Virus record (IMG/VR): IMGVR_UViG_3300007747_000074
Location: 1 to 21,308 of that record
Direction: 5' to 3' (one strand)
From: a virus
Lineage: Duplodnaviria; Heunggongvirae; Uroviricota; Caudoviricetes
Length of the DNA stretch: 21,308 nucleotides
Made by a program: the position numbers and the translations under genes. The notes under the pieces are model-generated. The model ran no database searches. It had not been told where the DNA came from and saw only the letters and a program-made list of their open reading frames with translations. This document shows, piece after piece, positions 3,272 through 19,767 of the stretch (within the stretch, counting starts at the first letter, position 1; every line of letters begins with the position of its first letter).

Positions 3272-3622
3272 TTACTCCTTATGGGCACCGAACTTGTTAC
3301 CGATGACCCTCATTGCCGCACCACGAATAGCATCAACACCAATCAGCCCCACCCCACCACCAATGGCAACAGAAAGTGATTTAGGCCATCCGACATACTC
3401 AAGCGCGGATGCAAAGGTCAGCGTCAGAGCACCACAAAGCAGAATCTCAAGCGTTTTTCGTTTCCAGCCGCCGCCACCGCCAAAATAGGCAATGCGCAAA
3501 CCAGCCATAATAATTGACATAACCACTGCACCCAGCGGCGTATCTCCACGCCACCAACTTTGTAAGAGTTCCAGTAAGTCAGGCCAGGAATGAGGGGCAT
3601 TGTGCATTTTCATAAGCCTCAC
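3272..3622 (-). CDS. Holin (lambdoid S-like, possible dual start)
   Basis: 116-aa ORF with hydrophobic helices (AVVMSIIMAGLRIAYF; ILLCGALTLTFASALEYV; VAIGGGVGLIGV) and charged C-terminal tail; N-terminus MRLMKM offers closely spaced Met codons like the lambda S107/S105 dual-start motif; sits directly upstream of the endolysin. Confidence 0.65.
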   Translation of the reverse strand: MRLMKMHNAPHSWPDLLELLQSWWRGDTPLGAVVMSIIMAGLRIAYFGGGGGWKRKTLEILLCGALTLTFASALEYVGWPKSLSVAIGGGVGLIGVDAIRGAAMRVIGNKFGAHKE

Positions 3623-3710: not shown

Positions 3711-3737
3711 GAAAAAGCCCCGGGACATGCCGGGGCC
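3711..3737 (-). terminator. Intrinsic terminator on the - strand, downstream of the moron gene
   Basis: GC stem gccccgg (3717-3723) / ccggggc (3730-3736) with 6-nt loop; on the - strand the stem is followed by TTTTTC (complement of 3711-3716); no T-run on the + strand side. Confidence 0.5.
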
Positions 3738-3830
3738 AGATGGAGTGCCAGATTAAGCTTCTGGCGGTATATACTCGTGTTTGATATCGTTAAATCGCCA
3801 AAAGTAACAATTCAAACAAAGAGGATTTTT

Positions 3831-3992
3831 ATGTCTGAAAAAAACAAACCACAAGGTGAAAATAAACCTCAGCAACCCGTGGCACCAAAACCAACTCCAA
3901 CACAAAGTACTACAGACTTTGCTACACGTCGTGTTTTTGTTGGAGATTCTGCCGACTCAGTCATTGAACATATAAAAAAACAGCCGAGATAA
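3831..3992 (+). CDS. Hypothetical small Pro/Gln-rich protein (53 aa)
   Basis: ATG at 3831 preceded by agagga SD with about 7-nt spacing; translation MSEKNKPQGENKPQQPVAPKPTPTQSTTDFATRRVFVGDSADSVIEHIKKQPR; its 3' end overlaps the convergent moron CDS by 32 nt; low-complexity composition makes coding status uncertain. Confidence 0.25.
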   Translation: MSEKNKPQGENKPQQPVAPKPTPTQSTTDFATRRVFVGDSADSVIEHIKKQPR

Positions 3993-4530
3993 ACATCGCC
4001 GCTACCGGAGCAAGGATGGTATACATCCTTGCTTTATCGAGACTCGTGCGGATTTTCTCATTTTCCAACAGTAACTCTCTTGCTGTATCACTCAAGTCAA
4101 CAAGGCGATACCTTCGTATAAGCGGCAATAACTTATCAGGTCCTAAATATCCTGCATCAGCGAATATTTTAAAGCTCGAGGGCTCCATATCCTTATATTT
4201 TTCATGATATAGATGATCAGGAGGGGCATTGATCAGGCCCCTAACCTTCACAGATAAATCAGTACATACCAAGTAAATGGCGCACCATGTCCATAGTAAT
4301 GTAAATGTGGTAATTCCGGCGGTGAGAAAATCGAAATTAGTTTTCTGTGTCAGCAATAAAAAAGATGAACCAATTCCAACAATCTGAATGTTCAGAAGTT
4401 TGTATCCATTCTCAACATTGGTTTTGTTAGAAAGATGAATCTCTCGTATCGTCTCTTCCCCTTGTTTTTCAAGATAATCGACGAGCTCATCATCTACTCC
4501 TAAAAAATAATCTTTAGGTAGTTCTCTCAT
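3961..4530 (-). CDS. Hypothetical membrane protein, AT-rich moron between Q/tR' and holin
   Basis: 189-aa ORF with strong SD (tggaggtgag) before ATG at 4530; acidic N-terminal ~40 aa, then hydrophobic segments (LLNIQIVGIGSSFLLL; FDFLTAGITTFTLLWTWCAIYLVCT; C-terminal MYTILAPVAAMFISAVFLYVQ); AT-rich versus neighbours; no family recognised. Confidence 0.6.
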   Translation of the reverse strand: MRELPKDYFLGVDDELVDYLEKQGEETIREIHLSNKTNVENGYKLLNIQIVGIGSSFLLLTQKTNFDFLTAGITTFTLLWTWCAIYLVCTDLSVKVRGLINAPPDHLYHEKYKDMEPSSFKIFADAGYLGPDKLLPLIRRYRLVDLSDTARELLLENEKIRTSLDKARMYTILAPVAAMFISAVFLYVQ

Positions 4531-4635
4531 CTCACCTCCACATCCTGTACTGAAAACAATTTTACCAGAATGTCTCGATTCTAGGTATTCCGCCAGGAAT
4601 CGCGCTCCAGAAATGAAACATCAGGTTCACCAGTA

Positions 4636-4668
4636 CCAGAAACAACAAAACCCGCTCAATGGCGGGTT
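4636..4668 (-). terminator. Intrinsic terminator on the - strand, candidate tR' (target of Q antitermination)
   Basis: Stem cccgc (4651-4655) / gcggg (4662-4666), extendable by A-T pairs, loop tcaatg; on the - strand followed by TTTTGTTGTTTCT; lies about 85-115 nt downstream of the Q-like stop, the expected geometry for pR'-tR'. Confidence 0.45.
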
Positions 4669-4751
4669 CTGGTAAAGTTCATGCGCTTGGTTCGCCTCGC
4701 GATACAGCTTTGCGAAGCATACCGGAATTGAAGCAGTTTATGCGTAAAAAA

Positions 4752-5207
4752 TCAAGCTATTTTTTGAGCAAATGATTCTCGCATGGGAATATATAGGGCA
4801 TACTCAGCAACAGCCAACCAATTAGCAATTCGCTTTTCGCATGTGCTAAAACACCACTCAGGATGTGCATCATTTAGCAATTCAGCCATTTTGCGCTTAG
4901 TCATCCCCCGTCCTTCATACCGTTGCCGGAGGACACTAATCAATCCAGGATGCTCTGCCAGCACCTCACTTATGACTCGATCAATACATAACGCCTCTGC
5001 ATCAGTACAATGCGCCAGCCAGCTCTTTTGCTTGCCGTTGATCATCTCTCGCAAAAACGCTTCCAGCTCAGCTTTCTCTATTCCCGCTTTTTTCATTCTG
5101 CGCAGGGCTTCATTGATGGCTGTTTTCGTCAATTTTTTGGATGCCAACAACTGATTGAACATATTTCCTGACCTGCCACCGCCAATATACGACCAGCGCC
5201 CCCACAT
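4752..5207 (-). CDS. Putative late-gene antiterminator (Q-like), start uncertain
   Basis: ORF 4752-5414 (220 aa) overlaps the upstream YbcO-like CDS by 124 nt in another frame, so an internal start (Met70 at 5207, or Met85 at 5162) is more plausible; Cys-containing motifs (HCTDAEALC, EWCFSTCEK); assignment is mainly positional (last gene before tR'/lysis cassette). Confidence 0.4.
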   Translation of the reverse strand: MWGRWSYIGGGRSGNMFNQLLASKKLTKTAINEALRRMKKAGIEKAELEAFLREMINGKQKSWLAHCTDAEALCIDRVISEVLAEHPGLISVLRQRYEGRGMTKRKMAELLNDAHPEWCFSTCEKRIANWLAVAEYALYIPMRESFAQKIA

Positions 5208-5290
5208 ACGCAGTTTGCCCTGAATCCAGACACTTTCCAGCGTGGCGAGACGAAGGTGTTCTCCGCTTTTTCCTGTATTCGTTGGGTAAA

Positions 5291-5581
5291 TCACAAATAT
5301 CCCTCCTTTCTCCAGATTTCTTGTGTGCGAAAAACACCTTCTGCATGCATCAGGCGTAATTCTTCTTTGGTGTAATCGCTGGTTTTTACCCGCCCGTCGA
5401 TTAGATCGTGGCATGAGCTACAGGCAATCGCCGCCTGCATATCGTGTGGTTTTGTCGCTGTTCCGCACGTTCCCGCCAGTCGGTAATGCGCCAGCACAGA
5501 CGTTTCCGGATCGTGATTGCAGTAGCCAGGAATTCTGACGGTGCACATCTGCCCCCGCGCCGCTTTACGTAAATCCACCAT
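5291..5581 (-). CDS. YbcO-like (DUF1364) putative Zn-binding nuclease, nin region
   Basis: 96 aa; MVDLRKAARGQMCTVRIPGYCNHDPETSVLAHYRLAG.CGT.TKP..ACSSCHD resembles DLP12 YbcO as I recall it (same length, conserved Cys/His); start overlaps the upstream gene stop (TAATG). Confidence 0.7.
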   Translation of the reverse strand: MVDLRKAARGQMCTVRIPGYCNHDPETSVLAHYRLAGTCGTATKPHDMQAAIACSSCHDLIDGRVKTSDYTKEELRLMHAEGVFRTQEIWRKEGYL

Positions 5582-19578: not shown

Positions 19579-19767
19579 ATGTATAAAATTACCGCCACTA
19601 TTGAAAAGGAAGGTGGCACTCCTACTAACTGGACAAGATATTCAAAATCTAAACTAACGAAATCAGAATGCGAAAAAATGCTCTCAGGTAAAAAAGAAGC
19701 AGGCGTTTCCAGAGAGCAGAAAGTAAAACTGATAAATTTTAATTGCGAGAAACTTCAGTCCTCGTGA
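19579..19767 (+). CDS. ydaC: YdaC-like small protein
   Basis: MYKITATIEKEGGTPTNWTRYSKSKLTKSECEKMLSGKKEAGVSREQKVKLINFNCEKLQSS; alternative upstream starts at 19567 and 19507 exist in the ORF; position between ralR and xis. Confidence 0.5.
   Translation: MYKITATIEKEGGTPTNWTRYSKSKLTKSECEKMLSGKKEAGVSREQKVKLINFNCEKLQSS

Follow-up and report, generated by a model that had tools for sequence, protein, structure and literature searches.

The region between positions 4,752 and 5,581 of the window, the 21,308-nt stretch of virus record IMGVR_UViG_3300007747_000074 analysed here, very probably carries ybcO and a DUF1133 gene, both of which are intact and translationally coupled. In this lambdoid prophage of the Rac family, the DUF1133 gene would encode a late antiterminator related to the Q protein of phage 21 (Q21). 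Comparisons of DNA and protein sequences locate the start of the DUF1133 gene and show that it is intact. Antitermination as its mechanism is suggested by homology and by the layout of the downstream cassette. The prophage lies at ttcA, and the window covers its left part. On the minus strand, in the direction of the late genes, the order is ydaT, ydaV, a NinB-like DUF1367 gene, ybcO, the DUF1133 gene, a 189-aa ORF, holin, endolysin, Rz and trkG. The other end of the window contains intR, xisR, ralR, recT, recE, kilR and sieB. The antitoxin sRNA RalA (Rfam RF02694, 225 bits) was detected beside ralR at 19585-19763 (-), as expected for a Rac prophage; Rfam and tRNA scans detected nothing within the ybcO-DUF1133 region. 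In NZ_CM143881.1 and similar sequences, which are otherwise 99.9% identical, the window is spread over ~27 kb in four pieces. The ~5.7 kb of extra DNA in this prophage stretch are possibly insertion sequences.

The ORF list of the window confirmed all ORF coordinates of the initial annotation. Three minus-strand ORFs share the region: a YbcO ORF of 96 aa (5581..5291), the longest ATG-initiated Q-like ORF of 220 aa (5414..4752) and an ORF of 78 aa in a third frame (5346..5110). Reading of the sequence located Met codons of the Q frame at 5207 and 5162. The annotated overlap of 124 nt (5414-5291) holds for the longest ATG-initiated ORF, but the actual gene overlaps ybcO by 4 nt only. The long overlap and the third-frame ORF appeared because the longest ATG-initiated ORFs were taken, and the overlap seemed puzzling because ATG starts alone were considered and a GTG at 5294 was missed. 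If codons are used uniformly, 41 consecutive codons of an alternative frame are free of stops with a probability of ~0.14. The six frames of the window contain 44 ORFs of at least 78 aa, compared with ~35 annotated genes in the matching RefSeq stretch. The overlap and the third-frame ORF do not exceed chance.

The ybcO-like gene (DUF1364/YbcO, 5291..5581 (-), RefSeq WP_000228032.1) is intact. Its 96-aa protein matched positions 2-91 of the 92 positions of PF07102 (E 2.9e-45, 152.7 bits against a cut-off of 29.9). The ATG of ybcO overlaps the stop codon of the upstream NinB-like DUF1367 gene as TAATG. With the GTGA junction between ybcO and the DUF1133 gene, all three genes look translationally coupled.

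Comparative evidence places the start of the DUF1133 gene at GTG 5294..5292 (-), which is codon 41 of the long ORF. The gene ends with TGA at 4754..4752 (-) and thereby comprises 543 nt (5294..4752 (-)) for a protein of 180 aa. Around the start, the minus strand reads tggagaaAGGAGGgatatttGTGa. A consensus Shine-Dalgarno sequence, AGGAGG (5302..5307 (-)), is located 7 nt upstream of the GTG within the 3' end of ybcO. It is followed by GTGA (5291..5294 (-)), the 4-nt overlap of the GTG start and the TGA stop of ybcO. The ATGs at 5414, 5207 and 5162 have no ribosome-binding site comparable to AGGAGG; the closest is an AGGA 3 nt before 5162. The Pfam profile of DUF1133, PF06576, matched the long ORF with an E value of 1e-106 (354.4 bits against a cut-off of 23.1). 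Its positions 1-175 of 176 correspond to residues 41-215 of the long ORF, that is, to residues 1-175 of the 180-aa protein. RefSeq annotates the same coding sequence of 180 aa, WP_000640106.1, in 100%-identical E. coli chromosomes.

Homologues start at the same position. A homologue search found 906 proteins. The best 120 of these and further full-length relatives have 176-192 aa, with the exception of a few entries that are shorter or partial. All 17 aligned homologues have the N-terminus MIYP at the position of the window's GTG. On the DNA, the position of the start codon was confirmed in 14 other loci, and 12 diverged loci have an ATG there. In two E. coli prophages and in Klebsiella, Providencia and Edwardsiella phages, the upstream gene is not ybcO but RusA, an adenine methylase or another gene. 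These loci have an ATG at the shared start and an in-frame stop 0-4 codons upstream. The Providencia phage is the exception: it has a GTG directly after the stop, independently of the lineage of the window. In ybcO-linked relatives, nine diverged E. coli loci and phage Rac-SA53, the start is an ATG within ATGA. Among the E. coli loci, the GTG start is limited to the window's own lineage (L016, L019 and L020, at least 97.4% identity), and the more distant E. coli relatives all have ATG at this codon. The GTG allele is read as a lineage-specific change from ATG to GTG. Possibly, this change lowers the Q dosage and delays lysis.

Translation from ATG 5414 would yield a 220-aa protein with the first 40 residues encoded in the 124-nt out-of-frame overlap with ybcO. 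The ORF is indeed open from 5414, and nine of ten ybcO-linked loci keep 41 open codons in the extension frame. Nevertheless, this start is extremely unlikely. Reading of the sequence revealed no Shine-Dalgarno motif before ATG 5414, the extension has an in-frame stop in the relative L011, and the ATG is replaced by GTG in three loci. Variable sites in the extension number 19, 9 and 6 at the first, second and third codon position of its own frame and 9, 6 and 19 in the frame of ybcO. The variation is concentrated on the first codon position of the extension frame, which is the third position of ybcO. Homologues behind RusA, methylase or other genes have their stops in the place of an extension, which also lies outside the DUF1133 profile and outside Q21. 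The 40-codon N-terminal extension (5295..5414 (-)) is ybcO read in another frame and is non-coding. Substitutions upstream of 5294 fit the ybcO frame better, and those downstream fit the Q frame better. Reading the longest ATG-initiated ORF misplaces starts where the true start is a GTG coupled to an upstream stop.

The initial annotation had also considered an internal start of Q. The gene does start inside the longest ORF, but not at Met 5207 or Met 5162: GTG 5294 results in 180 aa, not ~150. Initiation at one of these methionines would produce ~151 or 136 aa and turn 5294-5207 into non-coding DNA or a remnant. Both ATGs exist, 5162 has the AGGA mentioned above, and one database entry has 150 aa (P0040, labelled partial). 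A start there is nonetheless very unlikely. Codons 2-29, from 5294 to Met 5207, have 7, 6 and 19 variable sites at the three codon positions. In every comparison, more codon differences are synonymous than non-synonymous (12 against 4 in the relative L002, for example), a pattern of purifying selection. Since these codons are conserved with mostly synonymous changes, a 150-aa protein from 5207 is not the full-length product. The segment is present in all full-length homologues, and residues 14-52 align to residues 6-46 of Q21. A minor truncated isoform may be initiated at an internal Met of the DUF1133 gene.

A frameshifted N-terminal part of Q, the other explanation offered for the overlap, would make the gene an inactivated pseudogene and the late and lysis operon not inducible. 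Three ORFs in three frames across 5110-5581 are in line with this scenario, and Rac prophages are often defective. The comparisons make it hardly credible. A single frame carries the whole DUF1133 profile, positions 1-175 of 176, and the same 180-aa protein is present in RefSeq; the other two frames lack a family match and are not conserved. The length of the gene equals that of its homologues in five genera. Conserved positions are unchanged: no residue of the window departs from a residue common to at least 90% of 23 other family members. An identical gene occurs in ~98 complete E. coli genomes at an identity of at least 99%. In the third frame, the 78-aa ORF had no match in Pfam or PHROG. 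Stops interrupt it in each of the nine diverged relatives examined, and its variation falls on its own first codon position (37, 12 and 10 sites at the three positions). It is best explained as a chance ORF. By these comparisons, the DUF1133 gene is intact, with no frameshift and no sign of inactivation, which refutes the supposed inactive Q behind an uninducible operon.

DUF1133 proteins are common in E. coli prophages; a query of ybcO and the DUF1133 gene was matched in 1648 of 5426 complete genomes. A gene of 100% identity in "Escherichia phage vB_EcoS-673R7" was considered as proof of a viable phage and dropped. Such records are prophages predicted by PHASTER, not isolated phages, and therefore say nothing about inducibility. 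The family is narrow. An exhaustive search of representative sequences retrieved only 69 proteins, mostly fragments with about four full-length diverged members, and the homologue from the Edwardsiella phage, used as a new seed, brought in just four more. Alignments for structure prediction stayed shallow.

The relation to Q21 is remote. The 180-aa protein matched phrog_753, "anti-termination protein Q-like", with an E value of 4e-79. The match to PF06530, the Q21/Q933W family (10.1101/651190), was marginal with 26.8 bits against a cut-off of 26. A single-sequence phmmer search against the PDB gave only chance-level matches, with Q21 at an E value of 0.87, and a family profile was needed. The profile of 16 DUF1133 members matched the Q21 chains of 6P18 and 6JNX with an E value of 6.6e-9. 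The match consists of two segments in collinear order, pairing residues 14-52 with Q21 6-46 and residues 95-177 with Q21 57-152. Hhalign with Q21 from the phage 21 genome yielded a probability of 96.7% and an E value of 4e-10 for residues 14-179 against Q21 6-154. A W..G.L..WG.W helix lies within residues 14-52, the part aligned to Q21 6-46. This alignment to the Q family, proposed as a check in the initial annotation, revealed the N-terminal Q21-like helix in the same frame as the remaining protein.

Structural models were used as supporting evidence only. Confidence was low in both AlphaFold models (pLDDT 60.6 and 62.4) and fell below 50 in the N-terminal third. Foldseek searches with these low-confidence models returned Q21 structures for all of the top 11 and top 12 matches, respectively (Q21 is represented by PDB 6P18, 6P19, 6P1A, 6JNX and 6JNY). 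The best E value was 3.6e-4, and TM scores normalised by target were 0.55-0.73 and, in the second run, 0.64-0.73. Matches other than Q21 had E values above 1 throughout for both models. Q21 is the top structural match of these low-confidence models, with ~15-21% identity and homology over nearly the full length. Profile search and hhalign identify the DUF1133 protein as a distant homologue of the antiterminator Q21 along its whole length, and this remote homology supports the label "Q-like". A survey of Stx phages, some of which carry DUF1133 proteins, labelled them "Q antiterminator (HHPred)" (PMC8136144).

Two differences to Q21 stand out in the hhalign alignment. The DUF1133 protein is longer by ~30 residues, between roughly 42 and 93, in the region of the Q21 torus. 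By rearranging into this torus, the region constricts the RNA exit channel in Q21 (10.1101/651190). No counterpart exists for the Q21 segment PRKMLCRGGGRIQK, which falls into a gap of the DUF1133 profile. Q21 binds DNA by a helix-turn[loop]-helix motif, whose long loop makes contact with the minor groove (10.1101/651190). Located between two helices, PRKMLCRGGGRIQK is presumably this minor-groove loop. The DUF1133 proteins could form a divergent Q21 branch with an enlarged torus segment and no minor-groove loop, recognising a spacer element without repeat, a tentative picture that is less likely than not.

These differences, and the low identity to Q21, would also suit an intact DUF1133 protein that is not of the Q type, being an ordinary helix-turn-helix activator or repressor of the downstream promoter. 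The literature provided no functional study or antitermination test of any DUF1133 protein. Such a regulator is unlikely. The protein is homologous to Q21 from end to end, N-terminal helix included, and the gene occupies the Q slot. The downstream sequence has a promoter, a -10-like element at the start of transcription and a terminator before the lysis genes, a layout that is sensible only for antitermination.

A Q-type antiterminator is expected to act on elements directly downstream of its gene. In Q-dependent cassettes, the Q gene precedes a promoter with a -10-like pause element close to it, and a terminator stands before the late genes (10.1101/651190). In the window, all of these elements are present, followed by holin, endolysin and Rz, as judged from sequence and comparison only. 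After the Q stop, the minus strand reads gcTTGATTttttacgcataaacTGcTTCAATtccggTATGCTtcgcaaagctg..., and then the hairpin CAGAACCCGCCATTGAGCGGGTTTTG with a T-rich tail. Manual reading and comparison suggested a candidate late promoter, pR'-like, at 4727..4755 (-). Its -35 hexamer TTGATT (4755..4750 (-)) overlaps the Q stop. The conserved 17-nt spacer TTTTACGCATAAACTGC (4749..4733 (-)) is a candidate Q-binding element, and the -10 hexamer reads TTCAAT (4732..4727 (-)). A TG at 4735..4734, one base upstream of the -10, resembles extended -10 promoters. The consensus promoter scan did not flag this candidate because the -10 has no A at position 2. Just after the expected transcription start, a -10-like TATGCT (4721..4716 (-)) is a candidate sigma-dependent pause element. 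The terminator scan detected a tR'-like intrinsic terminator at 4671..4636 (-) with a 10-bp stem, a 6-nt loop and a T-rich tail (hairpin 4671..4646). The RNA fold of 4722..4630 had -31.3 kcal/mol and a z score of -2.15.

The cassette is conserved across the 15 DUF1133 loci compared. TAnGCT was found 5-7 nt after the -10 in 12 of these loci, and 14 have a hairpin and T-run terminator. Near-consensus hexamers occur at the same place in the Providencia (TTGACT/TATAGT) and Edwardsiella (TTGACA/TAGTAT) phages. The spacer is matched in 14 of 17 positions by the relative L003, and a related spacer is present in the Providencia and Edwardsiella phages.

Phage 21 shares this order of elements. Its annotated pR' has a -35 TTGACA, a Q binding element in a 17-nt spacer, a -10, the start, a pause element and a terminator. 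The pause element TAAGCTG begins at +2, one base after the start site. In phage 21 as in the window, the promoter -35 is at or just after the Q stop, followed by a conserved spacer, TA(A/T)GCT, a terminator and the lysis genes. Counted from the first base of the -35, the pause element is 34-35 nt away in DUF1133 loci (TAnGCT) and 36 nt away in phage 21. The terminator is located ~50-85 nt from the expected start in the window and immediately after the start in phage 21. A further difference concerns the spacer. No 8-bp direct repeat, that is, two 8-bp subsites of the phage 21 type, is evident in its 17 nt, and the window lacks a ATTGAGCA/AATGAGCA-type repeat. The binding site for the DUF1133 protein may have a different form from the phage 21 element.

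In one relative, locus L015 of E. coli 042 (NC_017626.1), the DUF1133 gene differs at its C-terminus. The promoter spacer of this locus contains ATTGCAAAATGAGCCA, which is similar to the Q binding element of phage 21, ATTGAGCAAATGAGCA; its -10, TACGCT element and terminator are as in the window. This may represent a modular swap of the DNA-binding end together with the binding site. Downstream of the DUF1133 gene, two other loci, L012 and L014 (E. coli OkiPb01686 and O157:H7 TT12B), have genes for tRNA-Met and tRNA-Ile after the terminator. In this they resemble phage 21, where tRNA-Asn and tRNA-Thr follow the pR' terminator.

In the window, an ORF of 189 aa (3961-4530 (-)) is located between the tR'-like terminator and the holin. 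It has a low GC content of 37-42% and looks membrane-associated. It matched phrog_11870 (unknown function) and had no match in PADLOC or Pfam. It occupies the cargo slot in which Rac-SA53 carries pertussis-like toxin genes. A convergent ORF of 71 aa (3777-3992 (+)), annotated in RefSeq, overlaps its 3' end. Another strong hairpin resembling a terminator, GGCCCCGG...CCGGGGCT followed by a T-run, separates the 189-aa ORF from the holin gene at 3716-3737 (-). Late transcription must read through two terminators to the lysis genes. The lambda-family holin ORF (3272-3622 (-)) begins with MRLMKM, and its RefSeq form of 113 aa starts from the second Met. The closely spaced Met codons resemble the dual-start holin/antiholin motif annotated for S of phage 21.

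Close relatives of the region are already annotated. WP_000640106.1, a "DUF1133 family protein" of E. coli Rac-type prophages (for example in NZ_CP023820.1 and NZ_CP025707.1), is encoded by identical DNA with the same GTG start (5294), stop (4752) and 4-nt overlap with DUF1364/ybcO. Phages Rac-SA53 (KU052037, ALP46898.1) and Rac (MN652886) have the same ybcO-q arrangement with a 4-nt overlap. Their q protein is annotated as antitermination protein Q and is 76-77% identical to that of the window. It differs by an ATG start instead of the GTG, and downstream of q by a different promoter region and the toxin genes eplBA in the slot of the 189-aa ORF. The lambda Q (PF03589) and Q82 families have the same regulatory role and genomic slot, and the three Q families were reported to be unrelated in sequence (10.1101/651190). 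A Pfam search revealed no sequence match of the window protein to the lambda Q (PF03589) and Q82 families. The ORF map of the initial annotation was accurate, and its explanation is ordinary and already encoded in public annotation: a GTG start coupled to an upstream stop. The region is already known and holds no novelty; its DUF1133 gene is intact and ordinary.

The DUF1133 protein would be the late-gene antiterminator of the prophage and a divergent relative of phage 21 Q. It would bind the spacer DNA of the promoter beginning at the stop codon of its own gene and load onto a sigma-70 holoenzyme paused at the -10-like TATGCT element. The terminator at 4671..4646 would then no longer stop this polymerase, which would continue into the 189-aa cargo gene and on to holin, endolysin and Rz. 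DUF1133 proteins, common as they are in E. coli prophages, have been called Q-like by remote homology only. For this prophage, a false alarm is removed: the late-gene regulator is not frameshifted, and nothing in the region argues for an uninducible lysis operon.
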